A DNA stretch of 64,000 bases from assembly GCF_056746865.1 (NCBI RefSeq), contig NZ_CM163382.1; one strand, 5' to 3'. Below are positions 1-9,219 of this stretch, piece after piece. The number at the start of each line of letters is the position of its first letter. The first letter of the stretch is position 1. The position numbers and the translations under genes were made by a program. The notes under the pieces are model-generated. The model was not told the DNA's origin. It saw nothing but the letters and a program-made list of their open reading frames with translations, and made no database searches.

Positions 1-295
1 TACCCCGCCGTTAAATCATCCACCAAGCGCGAGTCGGATGCGCCGTACAACTCACCATCCGACCCAACCATAATGCTTTGCGTGCTGCCCATCGCCTCAT
101 TCAGCGCCACTTTCTGACCTTTTGCTTCCAGCAGCTTGAGCGTATCCGGACTAAACCCTTTTCAACACGCAGCTCGTCCGGCAACCACTGATGGTGGAAA
201 CGAGGCGCATTGGTCGCTTCGGCAACATTCATTCCACAATTGATGCTGTTCACCACCATTTGCGGCACGGTAGTGATGATCCAGCTACCGGTAAC
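1..295 (-). pseudogene. gamma-glutamyltranspeptidase-like gene remnant (3' portion only, runs off window start)
   Basis: Minus-strand translation gives GGT small-subunit motifs (VTGS..IITTV, NAPRFHHQWLPDELRVEKG). The remaining GGT-like C-terminus (FSPDTLKLLEAKGQKV...TAGY) is in another frame, switching at an A-run near 165. Similarity stops at the IS repeat near 300-330. Confidence 0.5.
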
Positions 296-330
296 AAAGT
301 GAGTACATAAAGGCCATACTGTCACGAACA

Positions 331-2072
331 GTGCAAAAGTGGCTCTTCCTCAACCTAGGTGAAGATTTTCATGCCAGTGGACTCATTACCCTCCGCCTAA
401 GTAGTTCAAGTCCGGCTCGACCATACATCTGGCGTATCAGCACCTTCAGGCGATTTACATGACCTTCGACAACACCAGTACTCCAGCGACTGCTGATTGC
501 CTCACATATAGCCGCAGCATCAGCTTCCATCCCCGCAGCTACGCACCGAAGTTCTGCTGAGCCGCTTTCGTGGACCCGAGTGAACCAGCTGCTTAGCTGT
601 GATTTATTTTAGGTTTTCAGAATACGGTAGAACTCGAGTACCAGTTGCTGCGCTATTTTCAACTCCGGTTCTTTTTCACACATCAGACTAATAAATCGGA
701 AAGCATAATTTTCTTCACCCCTGATTATTCTCCAGGGCATCAACCAGCGGCTTACCCGTGACACTGAAGGAAGTCTTGCGGCAGTAGTAACCGGTGGGAT
801 CCAGCCTTTATGCCATTTGGCAACAGCATCCCTGACGATGGTTTCACTGCCTGTAACCCCCCTGGCCACCATTTCCCGCCATATCCGGCCGGAGTTATAA
901 TTACCACATTCTCGTTGCTCTTTTAACCACTCCCTCCATGGGTCCAGAAGCCCTCGCTTTGGAGGCCTGGTTGACATTTCAGGGAATGTTCCTGAACCCA
1001 CCCAGCGACTGACTGTCACTCGCGACAGGCCTGTAATACGGGATATTTCCCTGAAACTACATCCCTTGTTATGCAGGGCCATAACCTCTGTCCAACGCTG
1101 ATGCCGTTTTTTGCGGATGTGCTGTTTAAGGCGTTCCAGACGACGGAGCGATGCTACAGGCACAGATATTTCTGGCTCAGGTGATTTCTTCAGTGATAAC
1201 TCTCTGACAACAAGACGTATCAGAGGCATATGTCTGTACATCATTCGTTCAGGCTCATCACCAATATTTTTTAGCAGGTGCCATCGATCGGCCACCTGTC
1301 TGGCCTGAGGTGCACCTTCACGTGCTGCTGTCGCATAGACTCCACTGCGATCACGCGAGACAACCTGTATTTCCGGATATTTTCTGAACCAGGTCGCCAG
1401 CGTACGCTGATCACGGCCGGGAAGCAGGACGAGGGGACGGTGAGTATCAGGATTGACTATTAACATACCGCAGCAGTGGCCCCGATGCCACGCCCACTCA
1501 TCAATACCGACATGAGGCGCGCCTGACTGTTTCGTCTCCGGGGTATTGATAAGCCTGCGAAGAAGAGTATCAGCACTGCAACGGAGACCCACTGCCGTTG
1601 CAGCCCGTTTTCCAGCCTCACCTCCAGCTATTAATCCCAGTTGACGTTGTTAATTTTGTAACGCCTGTGAAGACTGCTGGTGTGAACTGGCGAAGGGAGC
1701 AAGCGACTCGGCAAAAATTTTACGTGAACAAGCCGGGTTACGGCAGTACCAGTGGCGGACGGAAAATACAAGCCATAGCGTCTGCCCTGAGCAGGGTAGA
1801 TGCTGTATCCGGCGCCGACGACAACTATGAACAGAGTCGCTACGCTTAAAGCATTCAGGACATTGTGCTGTTTTGCGTTTTCCGTGGAGATGGAGGGTTA
1901 TACCGTCAGAGCTAATAATTTGTCGACTGCATCGCCATCCGCAAGGTAACTGTAGAAGTGTCTTAAGAGAGTGCATTGCGTTGCCCATAACTTAAAACAG
2001 CTTAGATCCTTGTTCGCCAGAAAGTTTCATCCATTTTCTTCCACCCAGGTTGCGGAAGAACCACTTTTCATC
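331..2072 (-). mobile_element. ISL3-family-like insertion sequence
   Basis: Imperfect ~31 bp terminal inverted repeats at 331-361 (gtgcaaaagtggctcttcctcaacctaggtg) and 2042-2072 (reverse complement, ~26/31 identical, core GGCTCTTCC) enclose a zf-ISL3/HTH/DDE transposase reading frame. Exact ends uncertain by a few bp. Confidence 0.6.
609..1988 (-). pseudogene. ISL3-family transposase interrupted by a single in-frame TAA stop
   Basis: ORFs 1650..1988 (CxxC zinc-finger N-terminus) and 609..1592 (HTH then DEWAWHRGH...VVSRDRSGVYA...DRWHLLKN DDE region) are in the same frame, separated only by the stop at 1650-1652. Confidence 0.6.
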
Positions 2073-2271
2073 CGTCGTTGACAGATGTGAAGTATGCGGG
2101 AGAAAAAGTGAATATCTAACTGTAATAACTCAGACCGGTACGAGTACTCGGGACGTCTACAATCATTCAGGGCAAAGTGCTAAAATTTCTCTATCCCGGG
2201 ATGCCCCTACCAACGCAGCACTCCCGGAGATATCATTACAGCTCTGCAACTGATTTCCGCGACTGAACCGC

Positions 2272-2679
2272 TCAGTTCCTATCCTTCCAGTTGCCCTCCT
2301 GCCCCCCCTCCCTGCTGTATACCCCGGTACCACAACTCGGGCAGCACTTTTCCCCCTCATAATTTTCGTCACACATCACACAAAACCACTTTCTCACCTT
2401 CACCGTATAATCCGGAACCGTCATACCCTGCAGATGCAAACGACGGGCCTCTTTCTCTGCCGGGTCAAGCCAGGTGCATCGCAGCAGGATTTTCTCAGCG
2501 ACAGTCATCTGGTCATGTTCAAACCACGGTGGTTGTCCGTCATTGCCCCGCTGAAGTGTTAACGGGCATCCACAGGACACACAGCACAAAACGTCCTGGC
2601 GGTTGTGCTTCGCTGCTTCTTTCGCCGTAACAAAATGGCCTTTGCTGTCATTCGCCATATAACAGTTCAGAATTCGCAT
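2272..2679 (-). CDS. hypothetical zinc-ribbon protein (CxxC...PWFEH...CxxC), paralog of upstream gene
   Basis: ORF 2272..2766, likely start at internal Met (MRILNCY...). Shares the Cys-pair/PWFEH pattern with ORF 2667..3074. Confidence 0.4.
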   Translation of the reverse strand: MRILNCYMANDSKGHFVTAKEAAKHNRQDVLCCVSCGCPLTLQRGNDGQPPWFEHDQMTVAEKILLRCTWLDPAEKEARRLHLQGMTVPDYTVKVRKWFCVMCDENYEGEKCCPSCGTGVYSREGGQEGNWKDRN

Positions 2680-3074
2680 ATTTCCTCCTGAGTTGTCCGG
2701 GGAATACTGAATCCTCCGGTCTGGCAGTGTGTGCAGTACCGCTCCCCATAATAATCGTGGTGACATTGTCTGCAGTGCCAGCTGGCTTTACGCACCACGG
2801 GTAAGGCATCCGGTACGAATTGCTGCAGACGTTTAATCAACTGTATTTCTCTGCGCTCCGGCCTGACATAAGGGCACTGTTGACCGTGCTCTGTCAGCCT
2901 GTCGTCAGTGTGTTCAAACCAGGGAAGTTCAGTGTCGTATTGCGGATGGTATCTGAGTGCACTGCCACACAAGTGGCAGGTGTAGTTAGCATAAGGTGCG
3001 GCCTGTGCAGTACGGGCGCCCGTCAGACGTCCGTTGCCATCAAGAGCGATAAAGGATTTTGCGTACATAGTCAT
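2667..3074 (-). CDS. hypothetical zinc-ribbon protein (CxxC...PWFEH...CxxC)
   Basis: 135-aa ORF with GAGGA ribosome-binding site upstream of the ATG. Motifs YTCHLCGS, LPWFEH, CRQCHH, CTHC. Confidence 0.45.
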   Translation of the reverse strand: MTMYAKSFIALDGNGRLTGARTAQAAPYANYTCHLCGSALRYHPQYDTELPWFEHTDDRLTEHGQQCPYVRPERREIQLIKRLQQFVPDALPVVRKASWHCRQCHHDYYGERYCTHCQTGGFSIPRTTQEEICEF

Positions 3075-3327
3075 ATTCCTCAGCCGCCAGACGACACGCA
3101 GGCAACAGCCGTCCCGGTACGGGCAGCGTGGTCAGGGTGTGAATGGCGGTTCAGTTAAAATCTGGACTGGAGTTTGGGTAAAGCAGGCTGGTTGCTGTTA
3201 CAGCACTGTGGTTGTCACACAATGGAACACTGACGTAAAAAACAGTCAGTGGGCGAGTGGATACATCGTTGCCGCCAGACAACAACCCATACTTTTGGTT
3301 TGCCGGGTATTGGCGCGCCAGTCGTGC

Positions 3328-3933
3328 TCAACTCCGGCTACAGCCAAAATTGCGCTCACCGGTGCAGTGAGCTTTGGTATGTTCCTTCGCCAGATAGTCA
3401 GCACGTTCCAGCACCTGCTGAAAGCCAGTGTCATCATCGCGTTCCAGCCACACCGCCGGCCAGGCCGGGAAATGCACCAGCGTGGCATGGCACCCGACAT
3501 CCACTCCCAGGGCACTGCACCACGCCTGTTTAATCATCCCGGCCAGTGATCCCGGAGCACGGTAATCACCGGCACGACACCAGGTATCCCGGTTAACCAG
3601 CAGCATCAGGTGATAGTGTTTTTTACCTTTGCACTCCCCAAACTCCCGGGCCCAGACGTAATGCAGGGTTGTGGGATGCACGCGTTTACCTTCCCGATGC
3701 TTACGTTTCTGGTAAGCGTCGATTCGGGCTTTCAGGGCATTGATGAAGCGGGATATCACAGCTGCGTCCGTTGCTGCCGGTACATCCGGGAAACGCAGGT
3801 CAACCCGCAATGCCGTCAGGCGGGGATGAACATTCAGTGCGTGCCGCACCGTCTCACGAATACGTTGCTGCCAGAAGGGGTTGTATTTGTAGGTCATGGT
3901 TAAATCTCCGTATGGTTCATACGGAATAGCCAC
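3328..3933 (-). CDS. YagK/YfjJ-family protein (inovirus Gp2-like, typical of CP4-6/CP4-57-type islands)
   Basis: 201-aa ORF; recalled family resemblance (KYNPFWQQRIRETV..., HYHLMLLVNRD). Start may be the internal Met at 3897. Confidence 0.55.
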   Translation of the reverse strand: MAIPYEPYGDLTMTYKYNPFWQQRIRETVRHALNVHPRLTALRVDLRFPDVPAATDAAVISRFINALKARIDAYQKRKHREGKRVHPTTLHYVWAREFGECKGKKHYHLMLLVNRDTWCRAGDYRAPGSLAGMIKQAWCSALGVDVGCHATLVHFPAWPAVWLERDDDTGFQQVLERADYLAKEHTKAHCTGERNFGCSRS

Positions 3934-4093
3934 GTCGTAAAAAATGCGCAGAGTCCCTGAAGTGACCTCCGGCAGGACACTGTCTCAGGCACTCTGTGAT
4001 AACCCGAACGGTCGTCTCCGGACTGACGGTTGAATTTTCAGCGTTGTTTTTTTAATGTAAAAAACCGGTTACGGGTAAGGCTGTGAGGAGGGA

Positions 4094-4297
4094 GTGATGG
4101 TGATACGCAAAAAGAAGTGCAGGGACTGTGGAAACGCGATTACTCATAATACAGTGTGTTGCCCGTATTGTGGTTCTGTCGACCCCTTCGGCTATTACCG
4201 GAATACAGACCGTATCGTTACCATACTGCTGGCACTGATTATTGTGGTCCTGCTGACTACTGTCAGCGTCAGTGTGTATATACTGTGTAGCTGGTGA
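4094..4297 (+). CDS. small zinc-ribbon membrane protein (CxxC-x-CCPYCGS followed by one transmembrane helix)
   Basis: 67-aa ORF with strong GAGGAGGGAG ribosome-binding site directly upstream; C-terminal hydrophobic stretch IVTILLALIIVVLLTTVSVSVYIL. Confidence 0.45.
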   Translation: MMVIRKKKCRDCGNAITHNTVCCPYCGSVDPFGYYRNTDRIVTILLALIIVVLLTTVSVSVYILCSW

Positions 4298-5248
4298 GAT
4301 AACGGTTCATGTATCCCCTGAGCTGACAGTGTACCGGGTATATTAAGCGTAACCGACAGGTTCTCCTTCATACCATATTAAATTTTTCCAGGTATTGCCG
4401 CTGCCTTATTTCGTCCCATACAGGAAAACTCGTCTGGGTTTCTGACAAATACGCGAAACTCACAGCCCCTCAATATCAACCACACGCTGTAAGCCGGTAA
4501 TACCTGAAAATCAGCCTATTACCGCCCGCGCCTCCGTTACCGAACGCTCAGGTGACCAGACTGAAGCCCAGCACGCACTCGTAAAATTTGCGGTCAGTTC
4601 CGTCAGTCAGTGGGCAACCGCAGAGTTACGGGCTTCCAGGTCCACAGGAGTGAGTCTATAACGCGTGTGGGAAATCATTTTTTCTGGCGTTGACAGAACG
4701 CCTTACGGGCTGCTACTTACCCGGTGTCCCGCAATACAGCCTTAGTGTTCCGTTATCGGGGATCCGGACGCACCGCAACAACCGGGGAAGTATTTCTGGT
4801 TAGAGCTGTGTCAAGAGGGATTTCTCAGCCCCTCACTCACCGGCTCAGTCTCAGGGCAGAAGCATTAATACACTCAGTTCATGTCTTATACAGGAATGGG
4901 CATAGGGGGAGCTGGCGTGTCACTGCTGATTTTACGCATCAGCGTTCATGTATCTGCACTCTGATACAGAATGCTTCACAGCGCTCTGTTACCGGAGAGA
5001 TTTACTCTCTTAGGTTATTCTGGCAAATCCTTTACGTTACTCTCTGATGACTTCTTATATTTATAATACCAATCAGACAACCTTATCCCATCGGTGATAT
5101 CAGTCTCCTGCTCGCCAGGAACGGGCTGACTCACTGTAACCACCTCCGAAAACAACTCTGCAATTATCAGAACGCCTGCTTCTCTCCCTGTCCTCACGAA
5201 AACTATCCCCTCTTTATCGCGCGTGCGTGCGGAAGCATCTTTTCGCAA

Positions 5249-5259
5249 CCCCCCCCCCC
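5249..5259. repeat. homopolymeric C tract (11 C)
   Basis: Run of 11 C at 5249-5259, about 165 bp upstream of the alpA-like start. Confidence 0.9.
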
Positions 5260-5423
5260 GGGATTCCGCTACGGCTCTGCCATCGCAATCCCCCCGTTTA
5301 TCTCCGGACAGCCACATTCCCGATTATTTTTTACGTTTCTCCCCGGTTGTTATGCCGGTGAAGGTGGCGCGCTGTTTTCATGACCACACCGGCTGGTTTA
5401 ACAACATCCGGAGGAACATTCTC

Positions 5424-5630
5424 ATGGCTACCCCAGTTTCGCTGATGGATGACCAGATGGTCGACATGGCGTTTATCACTCAACTGACCGGCCTTACCGA
5501 TAAGTGGTTTGACAAACTCATCAAAGATGGGGGCTTTCCTGCGCCCATCAAAATGGGGCGCAGCTCCCGCTGGCTGAAAAGTGAAGTGGAAGCCTGGCTG
5601 CAGGCGCGTATTGCACAGTCCCGTCTGTAA
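5424..5630 (+). CDS. alpA: AlpA-family phage/island transcriptional regulator (excisionase-like)
   Basis: MATPVSLMDDQMVDMAFITQLTGLTDKWFDKLIKDGGFPAPIKMGRSSRWLKSEVEAWL matches the AlpA/MerR-like HTH family. ATG at 5424 preceded by GGAGGAA. Confidence 0.7.
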   Translation: MATPVSLMDDQMVDMAFITQLTGLTDKWFDKLIKDGGFPAPIKMGRSSRWLKSEVEAWLQARIAQSRL

Positions 5631-5717
5631 TTTTTAACCACTAACCCTTCGCCCACAGCAGACGCAATCTCCGGCCTGCCGGCGGCGCTCTGCTGCCTGT
5701 TATCCCCCGTGAGGAAT

Positions 5718-6326
5718 ATGAAAATGAAACAACAGTATCAGACCCGTTACGAGCTGCTCCATGAAAACTACCAGAAATGGCTGACCGGCTTCACCCGGCA
5801 CGCCGTATCATGGGGCGTGTGTCATCCGAATATCTACTATTTCCATAATCTGACGCCCGGGTGGGTGTCATTCAATGGCGAAAAACCGGAGATTGCCATC
5901 GTTCCCCAGAGTCTGCACCGGCTGATTTATGGTCCGGACAAACGGAGCTCCCCGTCCCTGGATGATGATCTGGTGGTGAATTTATGCACCAGCGAACACC
6001 TGCTGGTTCATCATCCGATGCTGGAAGGGATCCTGCTGTCTGAATGTGAGCGCCTGAAGCAACATTCTCTGGCAAACAAACTGATCAGCCTCTTCCGTCA
6101 GTTTGGCGGCACGGAGTTACGTCTCAAACTGGTCTGGCTCTGCTGGCTTGACTTAATGACCGGAAACAGCCTTGACGACTGGACGAAAAACCTGAAACAC
6201 AAATCAGAAAAAGATCTGGAGCAATGGATCATTGCACGTCAGGGTCAGAGTGAACCACTGACAAATCTGATGGATCAGTACGTGCTTATGGCATACCGTA
6301 CATCGGTTGATGCCGCTCACAGTTGA
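5718..6326 (+). CDS. hypothetical protein
   Basis: ORF 5709..6326; ATG at 5718 with GAGGA upstream; followed by a perfect 12-bp stem hairpin. Confidence 0.4.
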   Translation: MKMKQQYQTRYELLHENYQKWLTGFTRHAVSWGVCHPNIYYFHNLTPGWVSFNGEKPEIAIVPQSLHRLIYGPDKRSSPSLDDDLVVNLCTSEHLLVHHPMLEGILLSECERLKQHSLANKLISLFRQFGGTELRLKLVWLCWLDLMTGNSLDDWTKNLKHKSEKDLEQWIIARQGQSEPLTNLMDQYVLMAYRTSVDAAHS

Positions 6327-6336
6327 TGTCTGAGAA

Positions 6337-6370
6337 CCACAGGGCTGGCAGCAGAAAACCAGCCCTGTGG
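6337..6370 (+). terminator. stem-loop (ccacagggctgg / ccagccctgtgg) downstream of the 5718..6326 ORF
   Basis: Perfect 12-bp inverted repeat with 10-nt loop; weak U tract, so intrinsic-terminator function is uncertain. Confidence 0.4.
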
Positions 6371-7149
6371 TAAAATACAGTAATAGCGGCGTACATCAGG
6401 CACGCCGCTCACTCGTCCACAGATCATATACGTCATTATACTGCGCGATAACGGAGGGCTTCAGCACCCGGTCATTTCTGAGCGGGTATGAATACCATTG
6501 ATGATGCGAAGCAGCCACGGGCAGAAACGTTCTTCACAACCAGGTGCCTCCATCTTCACTGCAGTCTGAATGTGCCGGCTTGTTATCCACCAGAAATGGT
6601 ATGCTCCGGTACATGCATACCCCGGAGACTATAAACGCACTGAATCATAGCCTCCCACCTCAGCAGGAGGCAGTCAGCTTTCAGGCGGAAAAACGTTGCA
6701 GTTAAAGATCGTGAGAATCGCTGTTTCGTTGCATAGCAACCCGAACAGTTGTAGTGAAACATTTTACCTGCATCAGCACATGGTCAGGCGCCGTCTGTAT
6801 GGCGTGGAATACTGATGTTTCGGCTGATGGCAAGCCTCATTCTCTGTGGAAACAGGGGCGCGCATTAGCTTCTCAACCAAGAGAGTGTCACAAAGACAAA
6901 TATTGCTGAAAATCGCATTCATCGTTCAGGCGTGAATGCCCGGAGACAAAAGCCGCTGTCCACACAGTCCCCCTCTGACCTGAACAAAAAGCATACACAC
7001 AACAGGCTCACCTGACCCCGAAAAACCATAACTTCAGCAATACCAGTGACACCAGCACGTTACCTCAGTGCCACATCTTCAGACCGCGATCAATCTGAAA
7101 TGTGACTATCGGGGCAATATCCCTGCTTTGTGGTACACGATAACCAGAA

Positions 7150-7244
7150 AACATCCCCTGAACCGCCAGCCAGAAAGACTGGCCACAAAAGGGGTAAGCT
7201 GAAATCGTTTATGGATTACATCGACATATGCCTGGCAGAGAATG
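7150..7244 (+). pseudogene. IS21 istA remnant, 5' piece (split by the IS66 insertion)
   Basis: Translates PEPPARKTGHKRGKLKSFMDYIDICLAEN, matching the IS21 IstA N-terminal region; continues in frame at 9683 once the IS66 element is removed. Confidence 0.55.
7237..7244. repeat. 8-bp target-site duplication AGAGAATG (left copy) of IS66-family element
   Basis: Identical 8-mer immediately flanks both GTAAGCG termini (7237-7244 and 9683-9690). Confidence 0.8.
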
Positions 7245-7285
7245 GTAAGCGTGCAGTGAGAACCGTATTGACGAAGTGAAGCTGG

Positions 7286-8822
7286 TCAGGCGGGCAGAGT
7301 AACCCGCCACGGGAGCAGAGCACCCACCCGGTTCACAGGCCAGTCGGCGATGACATCAAGTACATGATGCAGATAGCGTTCCGGATCCACGCCGTTTAAT
7401 TTGCACGTCCCGATAAGACTGTACAGTGACGCACCGCGCTCACCACCATGATCCGAGCCGAAGAACAGCCAGTTTTTTCTCCCCAGACTGACCAGTCGTA
7501 GGGCGTTTTCGGCAATGTTATTATCCACCTCCACCCAGCCATCTTCTGCATAGCGGGTCAGCGCCGGCCACTGGTTCAGCGCATACCCGAACGCCTTCGC
7601 CAGTTCTGAGTGCCTTGAGAGGGTTTTCTGTTTCTCCCGCAGCCACCCCTCCAGTGACGCCAGCAGCGGCAGCACTTTTTGGTGCCGGACTGCCTGCCGT
7701 TCCTCTGCTCTTTTACCTCTGAGCTCCGACTCGATGGCATACAGCTCGCCGATCCGTTTCAGCGCCTCCTCCGTCAGGGCTGACGGGGTACGGACGTGAA
7801 CATCGTGGATTTTTCGGCGGGCATGGGCCCAGCACGCGGCTTCCTTTATATGGCCGTCGCGGTAGAGCTCGTTGAACCCGGCGTAGGCATCAGCCTGCAG
7901 TACGCCACTGAAGCCTGCAAGATGGGTCTGAGGGTGGATACCTTTTCTGTCCGGGCTGTAAGCGAACCACACTGCGGGGGCCAGCGCTGATCCGGCGTTG
8001 CGGTCGTCTCGAACGTACGTCCATAAGCGCCCGGTCTTCGTCTTCTTATTGCCCGGCAACAGCACCGGGACAGGCATATCGTCAGCATGGAGTTTGCCGT
8101 CGGTCAGGACATAGTGCTGAAGGGCTTCATCCAGCGGTGCCAGCAGACGACAACACGCATCCACCCAGCCCGACAGTACAGAACGACTCAACACTACACC
8201 CTGGCGGGCATAGATCTCCGACTGGCGATACAGCGGTATGTGCTCTGCATACTTTGAGGTCAGCACTCGGGCCAGCAGCCCCGGTCCGGCGATCCCCCGT
8301 TCGATGGGGCGCGAAGGAGCCGGGGCCTGAACGATGCGATCGCACCGACGGCAGGCATGCTTTTCACGGACTGTCCGGATAACCCGGAAGGCGCTGCGCA
8401 TCAGCTCCAGCTGTTCGGCGGCATCCTCACCCAGGTAACTCAGCGAACCACCGCACTCCGGGCAACACGGCTCAGTCGGCAGCAGCCGCTTCTCATCCCG
8501 TGGGAGTGACTCAGGGAACGGTTTGCGGGTGCGGGTCTGACGCAGCGGGCGCTGCACTGCCGGGTCATCCACCCGGCCGGTCAGCGTATCGCTTTCCTGC
8601 TGCAGCAGGTTCAGGTCAGCTTCCATTTGCGCGATACGGCGGGATACCTTTTCGGAACGACTGCCGAAGTTCATCCGGCGCAGCTTATCCAGTTGCGCCT
8701 GCAGATGGTCTATTTCGCGTTCCCGGTTGCTCAGCTTTTCCTGCAGGGCGTGGATCAACGCTTCCTGGTTCGGCCAGGCGCTGTTTCAGCAGAAGGATGT
8801 CGTCAGAAGAGGTGTCGTTCAT
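7286..8822 (-). pseudogene. tnpC: IS66 transposase TnpC with a frameshift about 17 codons from the start
   Basis: ORF 7286..8758 is the IS66 TnpC body. The N-terminus MNDTSSDDILLLKQRLAE is encoded from 8822 in another frame, with one extra C near 8770 (gaaccaggaagcg). Confidence 0.65.
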
Positions 8823-8871
8823 AAGCCTGTATTTTACCAGGCTTATTCTGCGACAACCAGGATAAAGAGCG

Positions 8872-9219
8872 CTACAACATGGTCAGGGATGTCAGTAACC
8901 GCTTTGGCTGTCGCCAGTCGATACCTTCCATCAGCATCGCCAGTTGCGCCGGCGTCAGGAACACTTTGCCATCGCGGGCTGAGGGCCAGGCGAAGCGACC
9001 ACGTTCTAGTCGCTTTGTCAGCAGGCACAGACCATCGCCGGTGGACCAGAGCAGTTTTACCTGACTGCCGCTGCGTCCCCGGAAGATGAAGACGTGGCCG
9101 GACATCGGGTCATCTTTCAGCGCGGTCTGCACCTTTGCGGCGAGGCCATTGAAGCCGTTGCGCATATCGGTGATACCGGCAACCAGCCAGATTTTTGTGC
9201 CTGCGGGAAGATTTATCAT
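8872..9219 (-). CDS. tnpB: IS66 family accessory protein TnpB
   Basis: 115-aa ORF MINLPAGTKIWLVAGITDMRNGFNGLAAKVQ..., typical IS66 Orf2. Confidence 0.85.
   Translation of the reverse strand: MINLPAGTKIWLVAGITDMRNGFNGLAAKVQTALKDDPMSGHVFIFRGRSGSQVKLLWSTGDGLCLLTKRLERGRFAWPSARDGKVFLTPAQLAMLMEGIDWRQPKRLLTSLTML

Follow-up and report, generated by a model that had tools for sequence, protein, structure and literature searches.

We analyzed a 64,000-nucleotide stretch of contig NZ_CM163382.1 (NCBI RefSeq assembly GCF_056746865.1), hereafter the window, which is Escherichia coli chromosome, and describe a four-gene locus at positions 2272 to 4297. The locus comprises two overlapping minus-strand genes for small zinc proteins, here termed ZnA (2667-3068) and ZnB (2272-2679), a minus-strand gene of the YagK/YfjJ family upstream of them (3328-3897) and a divergent plus-strand gene for a small zinc-ribbon protein (4097-4297). 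Three observations are new: the strict synteny of ZnA with a gene for an HUH (Rep-class) enzyme, a conserved non-coding element 5' of ZnA, and the occurrence of ZnB as two allelic types. The genes themselves are catalogued but uncharacterized families in a well-known island type and already known as sequences, and there is nothing unusual about the copy of the locus in the window. We tentatively read ZnA and ZnB as non-catalytic nucleic-acid-binding partners of the island's HUH nickase, a possibility that we take seriously rather than a firm expectation.

The original prediction, made from the letters of the window, had pointed to two tandem paralogs with a shared Cys/His pattern beside a YagK/YfjJ-like gene and facing a small plus-strand gene. 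All four open reading frames that it listed are present and intact at the positions it gave. ZnA and ZnB are tandem paralogs (BLASTP, 31% identity over 118 aa, E 2e-15), coupled end to start by an overlap of 13 nt (2667-2679), and ZnB has its own AGGAGG Shine-Dalgarno sequence within the 3' end of ZnA. ZnA is 133 aa long; ZnB measures 135 aa from the start chosen by the Prokaryotic Genome Annotation Pipeline (PGAP; WP_001221623), and the longest open reading frame over it extends to 2766. The belief that no family could be named for them was wrong. Both are full members, without difference, of Pfam DUF7828 (PF25165), a domain of unknown function, and Zn_ribbon_11 (PF11682), with E-values of 2.8e-31 and 1.3e-09 for ZnA and 1.3e-30 and 9.9e-18 for ZnB. 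The corresponding scores (107.5 and 38.0 bits for ZnA, 105.3 and 63.9 bits for ZnB) exceed the gathering cut-offs of 25.7 and 24. In identical strains PGAP names ZnB a 'zinc-ribbon domain-containing protein' and ZnA a 'putative zinc ribbon protein'.

In a family alignment of 31 relatives, reaching down to ~21% identity, every member matches both DUF7828 and Zn_ribbon_11 in the same two-domain architecture. Ten positions are invariant (ZnA numbering): C31, C34, H53, C65, C99, C102, Y106, G108, C112 and C115. Eight of these are the zinc ligands, arranged as an N-terminal CCHC site in DUF7828 (C31, C34, H53, C65) and a C-terminal C4 ribbon in Zn_ribbon_11 (C99, C102, C112, C115), and the pattern CxxC...PWFEH...C...CxxC...CxxC noticed in the window is real. 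Besides the ligands the 31 sequences share no further invariant polar residue, and no catalytic motif held up on inspection of the alignment, from which ZnA and ZnB are predicted to be non-catalytic. A reading of 'PWFEH' as the signature of an HNH/His-Me nuclease was rejected because H53 is needed as the fourth zinc ligand and E52 is variable.

AlphaFold2 gave a confident two-domain model of ZnA (predicted local distance difference test score 86.8). In the model, the N-terminal domain opens with a hairpin and a helix, followed by a CxxC knuckle, a second hairpin with WFEH at its end and helices, and the C-terminal domain is a classical zinc ribbon. No solved structure resembling a whole ZnA-type protein was found, and searches of PDB sequences with profiles of the zinc-protein and YfjJ-like families returned nothing meaningful. 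NCBIfam and PADLOC gave zero matches for the zinc proteins, and PHROGs only families of unknown function.

ZnA is under clear purifying selection, with a ratio of nonsynonymous to synonymous substitution rates (dN/dS) of 0.15-0.24. The YfjJ-like gene has a ratio of 0.14-0.31, and ZnB, compared within one allelic type, a ratio of 0.3-0.6. The proposal that the genes are functional rather than noise is borne out by Pfam E-values of about 1e-30 for both paralogs, by dN/dS below 1 and by identical copies of each of the four proteins on at least 1000 public contigs.

The neighbor upstream of ZnA encodes a protein of 189 aa that matches YagK_YfjJ_C (PF11726) with 162.5 bits against a gathering score of 25.8 (E 1.1e-47); PGAP names it 'inovirus Gp2 family protein' in identical strains. 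Eight divergent active relatives share the invariant residues R31, D33, W82, E85, H94, H96, G110, W126, Y168, K171 and G185, which include the HUH motif H94-Y-H96 and the catalytic-tyrosine motif Y168-xx-K171. The protein shows the HUH fold, a beta-sheet bearing the HUH motif with flanking helices. Motifs and fold support well its assignment as a single-domain HUH (Rep-class) enzyme, putatively a DNA nicking-joining one. Compared with HUH endonucleases such as parvovirus NS1, AAV Rep, SIRV1 ORF119, RepB of pMV158 and inovirus gpII, the YfjJ-like protein amounts to the nuclease domain only (~190 aa), without a helicase, and its gene sits in a chromosomal island. Its identification as inovirus gpII itself is not supported: the score against REP_ORF2-G2P (PF23343) is 23.8 bits against a cut-off of 27.8, and the context is a chromosomal island rather than a filamentous phage, the search of phage records having covered ZnA and not the YfjJ-like gene.

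The association of the zinc pair with the HUH gene extends across species. Window proteins were mapped onto 19 species-level loci, of which 17 entered the ZnA-HUH synteny count. At 16 of the 17, an intact HUH Rep-like gene lies at most 2.5 kb upstream of an intact ZnA on the same strand; at the single exception both Rep and ZnA are frameshifted. The co-occurrence suspected in the original prediction thus holds well outside this strain. The upstream Rep is either of the YfjJ type or of a very different type, Rep193b, and both retain HxH and YxxK. In some loci of other genera alpA stands between the HUH gene and ZnA. ZnB directly follows ZnA with a conserved overlap of 13 nt or 4 nt. In E. coli and Salmonella the layout of divergent small gene, YfjJ, ZnA and ZnB is kept even where the small proteins are only 60-78% identical. 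Pairwise identities of ZnA correlate with those of Rep at 0.69 and with those of ZnB at 0.39, values uncorrected for linkage.

Beyond the pair itself, the surrounding loci offered several observations. In many genera the third gene, after ZnB, is a YfjJ paralog lacking the HUH histidines and the YxxK tyrosine motif (L008 10906-11454, L007 10836-11471, L019 10746-11450, L029 1127-1693), possibly a Rep domain that is inactive and only binds DNA. The window has no such gene 3' of ZnB, where an ISL3 element starts. In Citrobacter islands two Rep genes alternate with two DUF7828 genes, followed by Dpd cargo for 7-deazaguanine DNA modification (L022 10651-20390). In Tenebrionibacter (L008) the module lies between a GTPase/antirestriction backbone and type VI secretion system (T6SS) cargo, and in Salmonella (L031) it borders a ShlB-type two-partner secretion gene. 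The Rep/DUF7828 module stands at the border of a hot spot for cargo. In the window, the interval from the YfjJ-like stop codon to the ZnA leader (~3240-3327, minus strand) aligns with the 3' coding end of Rep193b (...LYGCNEVP...) of other genera, and from this alignment the E. coli layout seems to derive from a Rep193b-ZnA ancestor that lost the Rep193b gene.

An open reading frame for a 454-aa fusion, P0438 (L043 2797-4161), begins with a DUF7828/ribbon region and continues into a YfjJ-like domain whose HUH motif is degenerate (YFLHALFFF). Upstream of it are alpA and a 350-aa YagK/YfjJ gene. The YfjJ-like part aligns with hhalign at E 6e-4 and with its motifs in register, and the fusion provides a weak Rosetta-stone hint.

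The non-coding element occupies 3069-3165 on the minus strand, 5' of ZnA, with a core at 3094-3126 (CTGCCCGTACCGGGACGGCTGTTGCCTGCGTGT), as delimited by multi-locus alignments. Over 17 loci the core has a mean pairwise identity of 0.75; the coding sequence of ZnA reaches 0.61, and third codon positions 0.42. The element is present in a single copy per locus, always 5' of ZnA whatever gene precedes, and in E. coli it stands one-to-one with ZnA (7485 against 7480 places). It is missing upstream of second zinc genes and from the K-12 islands.

Several explanations of the element were tried and set aside. A coding sequence was rejected since the reading frame varies between species. A structured RNA is unsupported, with an RNAalifold covariation term of -0.28 and an RNA fold z of +0.18. 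Rfam gave no match at E <= 0.1 within window positions 1-9000, and in 3040-3340 only a chance long non-coding RNA at E 0.99. A leader structure that we specified ourselves scores slightly above controls, a comparison biased by the derivation of that structure from the window. Folded as single-stranded DNA, the leader reaches z = -2.0, which is suggestive only, and support for hairpins is weak. In E. coli, Salmonella and Tenebrionibacter the element holds no consensus match to a sigma-70 promoter, and a sigma-54-like reading made by eye (GGGACGG-N4-TTGC) was discarded on the grounds that its -12 element is not conserved. Local and inverted repeats within 2000-5800 are limited to chance-sized matches. 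A scan of 2.9 million IMG/VR contigs for the leader motif matched six stretches, three of them carrying ZnA. An origin from phage satellites finds little support in this small number and in the lack of matches to ZnA among phage records.

The downstream partner behaves differently from ZnA. ZnB exists as two allelic types that are ~32-35% identical to each other, whereas ZnA and the HUH gene keep about 82-92% identity between alleles of E. coli and Salmonella (ZnA 82-90%), with a recombination breakpoint in the C-terminal tail of ZnA, within its last ~15 codons. ZnB is the variable partner and ZnA the constant one. The window carries type 1. In complete E. coli genomes type 1 occurs at 5020 places in 3423 genomes and type 2 at 2690 places in 1966 genomes, and together they account for the 7480 ZnA places. 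The two types were compared using window 2272-2679 and loci L029 (2167-2592), L031 (2173-2586) and L033 (1331-1744). Type 1 ZnB of E. coli is 50-53% identical to ZnB of other genera, closer than it is to type 2.

The pair is found in 3818 of 5426 complete E. coli genomes (~70%), usually in two copies and on the chromosome at 8335 of 8342 places. This count and the 19 loci, from a scan of one genome per species, answer the question of whether the genes are conserved beyond the strain at hand. A word-indexed search returned 292 clusters for ZnA and 137 for divergent relatives, and clusters with a named source are essentially all Enterobacterales. An exhaustive HMMER search over 1.84 billion representatives gave 319 proteins at E <= 0.001, nearly all shorter than 240 aa and stand-alone. 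The 19 loci, where named, are likewise all Enterobacterales except for three labels that look like contamination, on Collinsella and Bacillota contigs from metagenome-assembled genomes and on one Chryseobacterium assembly. A search of 50,697 phage records yielded no match to ZnA, and among 72,556 plasmid records the protein occurs in only 33, several being chromosomes that carry a wrong label. E. coli K-12 has no genes of the DUF7828 family, which probably explains why our search of the literature on DUF7828, DUF3279, YfjJ, YagK and CP4 with HUH found no functional study. SEN1998 of ROD21-like islands, considered as a relative, proved to be an AlpA-type recombination directionality factor.

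The window locus lies in an island. Window positions 1-37000 match the island between cobU and yeeA in many strains (the CP4-44 site, near tRNA-Asn), and the host island of the four genes is a degenerate CP4-44-site island. The closest relatives in K-12 are CP4-57 (intA-alpA-yfjI-yfjJ) and the CP4-6 gene yagK, which belong to the same island type with the same AlpA and YfjJ/YagK families. K-12 YfjJ and YagK are 36-40% identical to the HUH protein of the window, but unlike the window the K-12 islands lack DUF7828 genes, the conserved leader and the small zinc-ribbon/transmembrane gene.

Outside such islands, a parallel in arrangement is offered by IS91-family transposases and Helitron Rep, which are HUH enzymes with a fused zinc-binding DNA-recognition module. 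They likewise combine a zinc module with an HUH nuclease, and the fusion P0438 is similar in arrangement. In our locus, however, the zinc modules form two paralogous proteins of their own, and the likeness that we note is one of arrangement.

A further resemblance concerns the N-terminal finger of CoiA. The order of elements is common to both, with a beta-hairpin, a CxxC, a hairpin ending in aromatic-x-His and a further Cys. Sub-threshold matches to CoiA_N and DUF7830 occur in 4 of the 31 family members, the best for CoiA_N at E 5e-4. ZnB scores 12.9 bits against the cut-off of 26.3 for CoiA_N (PF25164), all matches fall below the gathering score, and ZnA and ZnB lack the PD-(D/E)XK nuclease domain. 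The CCHC finger would thus remotely resemble that of CoiA, a resemblance and not a membership. CoiA, which is confined to Bacillota and acts in transformation, has been described as a D-loop nuclease that bears a putative zinc finger at its N-terminus (bioRxiv 10.1101/2024.02.06.579203).

In the mechanism that we envisage, the locus would be the HUH/zinc-finger core of an integrative island of the CP4 type, regulated by AlpA and belonging to Enterobacterales. Translational coupling would yield ZnA and ZnB in fixed proportion, and the two would form a hetero-oligomer that binds nucleic acid. After AlpA-controlled excision, this hetero-oligomer may act with the HUH enzyme on island DNA, either recognizing or presenting the nick site or controlling its use in rolling-circle replication or mobilization. 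Specificity would come from ZnB as the exchangeable subunit, with ZnA as the constant one. The element 5' of ZnA would be the best candidate site for ZnA/ZnB or the HUH enzyme, or the proteins' own operator. An anecdotal observation in E. coli Nissle is that an integrase and a Gp2-family gene gained copy number in mice (bioRxiv 10.1101/364505).

Several points weigh against this mechanism, in which binding to nucleic acid, assembly of a heteromer and joint action with the HUH enzyme are all inferred. ZnA has no fold match to a DNA binder, and the isoelectric points of ZnA (7.06) and ZnB (6.86) are near neutral, not basic. YagK and YfjJ of K-12 have no DUF7828 partner, so the HUH enzyme can do without one, and in K-12 defence cargo directly follows yfjJ, so the zinc pair might itself be the first genes of the cargo. 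ZnA is 60-70% identical under either a YfjJ-type or a Rep193b-type upstream Rep, which argues against a tight, co-evolving Rep-ZnA interface. The fusion P0438 is found on one 4.8-kb contig only and could be a frameshift artefact. Finally, the window island has no annotated integrase, and the module may therefore be idle in this strain.

The strongest rival, which we consider unlikely, is that ZnA and ZnB are zinc-finger transcription factors that activate genes of the island, its cargo or a helper element, with the element as their own promoter or operator. The models for such proteins are P2 Ogr and P4 Delta, small CxxC...CxxC activators of late genes, Delta itself being a tandem duplication. 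ZnA and ZnB are also small and stand-alone, with CxxC pairs and without catalytic residues. They are always beside alpA or the backbone, and the cargo that lies downstream of them is variable (Dpd, T6SS, two-partner secretion, sugar genes). The invariant block immediately 5' of the ZnA Shine-Dalgarno sequence is in an operator-like position, and the weak support for RNA structure favors a site for a sequence-specific protein. However, neither protein matches Pfam Ogr_Delta even at E <= 0.1-1, each has two zinc sites where Ogr and Delta have one, and the phage context is missing, the family being absent from the phage records searched. The lack of a sigma-70-like match in the element in three species and the non-basic character of both proteins also speak against it. 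A regulator would further leave unexplained the strict pairing with an HUH gene and the dead Rep paralog after ZnB.

The partner reading can be taken further. The YfjJ-type nickase, ZnA, ZnB and the element could constitute an unrecognized origin-plus-initiator module of CP4-type islands, or a module of transfer origin (oriT) plus relaxosome, which we regard as quite unlikely. If it were true, CP4-type islands, which ~70% of E. coli carry, would replicate or be mobilized as single-stranded DNA after AlpA-triggered excision, and groups of specificity or incompatibility would be defined by the two ZnB alleles and the catalytically dead Rep paralog.

Cargo is the next explanation, and an improbable one: a two-gene defence, anti-defence or exclusion unit in the first position of the variable region, with ZnB diversifying in an arms race. 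CP4-57 of K-12 does carry the AbpAB and RnlAB defence systems right after yfjJ, the region downstream varies from island to island, and the divergence of the two ZnB alleles behind a well-conserved ZnA, with the break in the ZnA C-terminal tail, would suit such a unit. But PADLOC-DB v2 yielded no defence-system match at E <= 0.01 for any of five proteins, neither an enzymatic nor an effector domain is present, and nearly all of the 319 relatives are short and stand-alone. Moreover, ZnA and its leader hold their place by Rep or alpA in 17 species-level genomes in which the cargo is wholly different, which is the behavior of a backbone.

The least probable explanation is an inert relic in the window strain, kept intact by recent inheritance from mobile copies but doing nothing in an island without its integrase: no integrase is annotated between cobU and yeeA in near-identical strains, the island is full of ISL3, IS66, IS21 and IS1 elements and pseudogenes, the small gene is an annotated pseudogene in strain KMi025 and a Hha-like remnant lies at 4553-4693, yet the four open reading frames are intact and their products recur unchanged on at least 1000 contigs, alleles show a dN/dS well below 1, and the idea concerns activity in this strain only and is silent on the function of the family.

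CP4-type islands carry adhesins, toxin-antitoxin pairs, defence and secretion systems and metabolic cargo through the Enterobacterales, and their replication or transfer after excision is poorly understood. The HUH gene with the sequence and fold hallmarks of a nickase, the zinc pair beside it and the conserved element jointly offer a concrete, testable candidate for the machinery by which they process their DNA. Should that reading fail, these genes remain an unstudied set of great abundance that K-12 does not carry.

The divergent small gene (4097-4297, plus strand; PGAP WP_001297900, 'hypothetical protein') encodes 66 aa with a basic N-terminus, an N-terminal C4 zinc ribbon (CxxC...CPYC) and a single hydrophobic C-terminal helix, predicted to be transmembrane (residues 40-58, Kyte-Doolittle 2.99). 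It faces the minus-strand genes as predicted; the 67 aa given before count a GTG at 4094. It is the weakest member of the locus. Its motif and its ribosome-binding site are real, and the GAGGAGG Shine-Dalgarno sequence is kept in five alleles, but one allele lacks the second CxxC, another has a 5-aa deletion, and in KMi025, a near-identical strain, the gene is annotated as a pseudogene. In both E. coli and Salmonella it invariably points away from the YfjJ-like gene. With a dN/dS of 0.25-0.72 and 75 clusters mainly from E. coli or Shigella, it is a real, weakly constrained, lineage-specific accessory gene, transcribed divergently. The intergenic region between the two (3898-4096) holds the Shine-Dalgarno sequence of the small gene and, in a consensus scan, a candidate sigma-70-like promoter (TTTACA, 16-nt spacer, GAAAAT; 4061-4034) directed toward the YfjJ-ZnA-ZnB operon.

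Further along the same island backbone lies a gene for an AlpA-family excision regulator (5424-5630, plus strand; Pfam Phage_AlpA). A run of 11 C at 5249-5259, ~165 nt upstream of alpA, may be prone to slippage; in KMi025 the tract is shorter and interrupted (CAACAACCCCCCC). The degenerate remnant at 4553-4693 (minus strand) belongs to the Hha/YmoA family and is 56% identical over 48 aa to an intact copy at L029; in other E. coli islands this gene is intact at the same position. After alpA follows a backbone gene of 205 aa (5709-6326, plus strand) without a Pfam match, for which tblastn maps distant relatives at other loci; relatives are present in most loci, and the distant one at L008 (11561-12163) matches Pfam DUF2913. 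Directly 3' of ZnB, an ISL3-family transposase gene with an internal stop occupies 609-1988 (minus strand). At the other end, an IS66 element (tnpA/B/C; 7286-9219, minus strand) follows the 205-aa gene and probably occupies the place that a DUF3987 gene holds in the intact islands L029 and L033.

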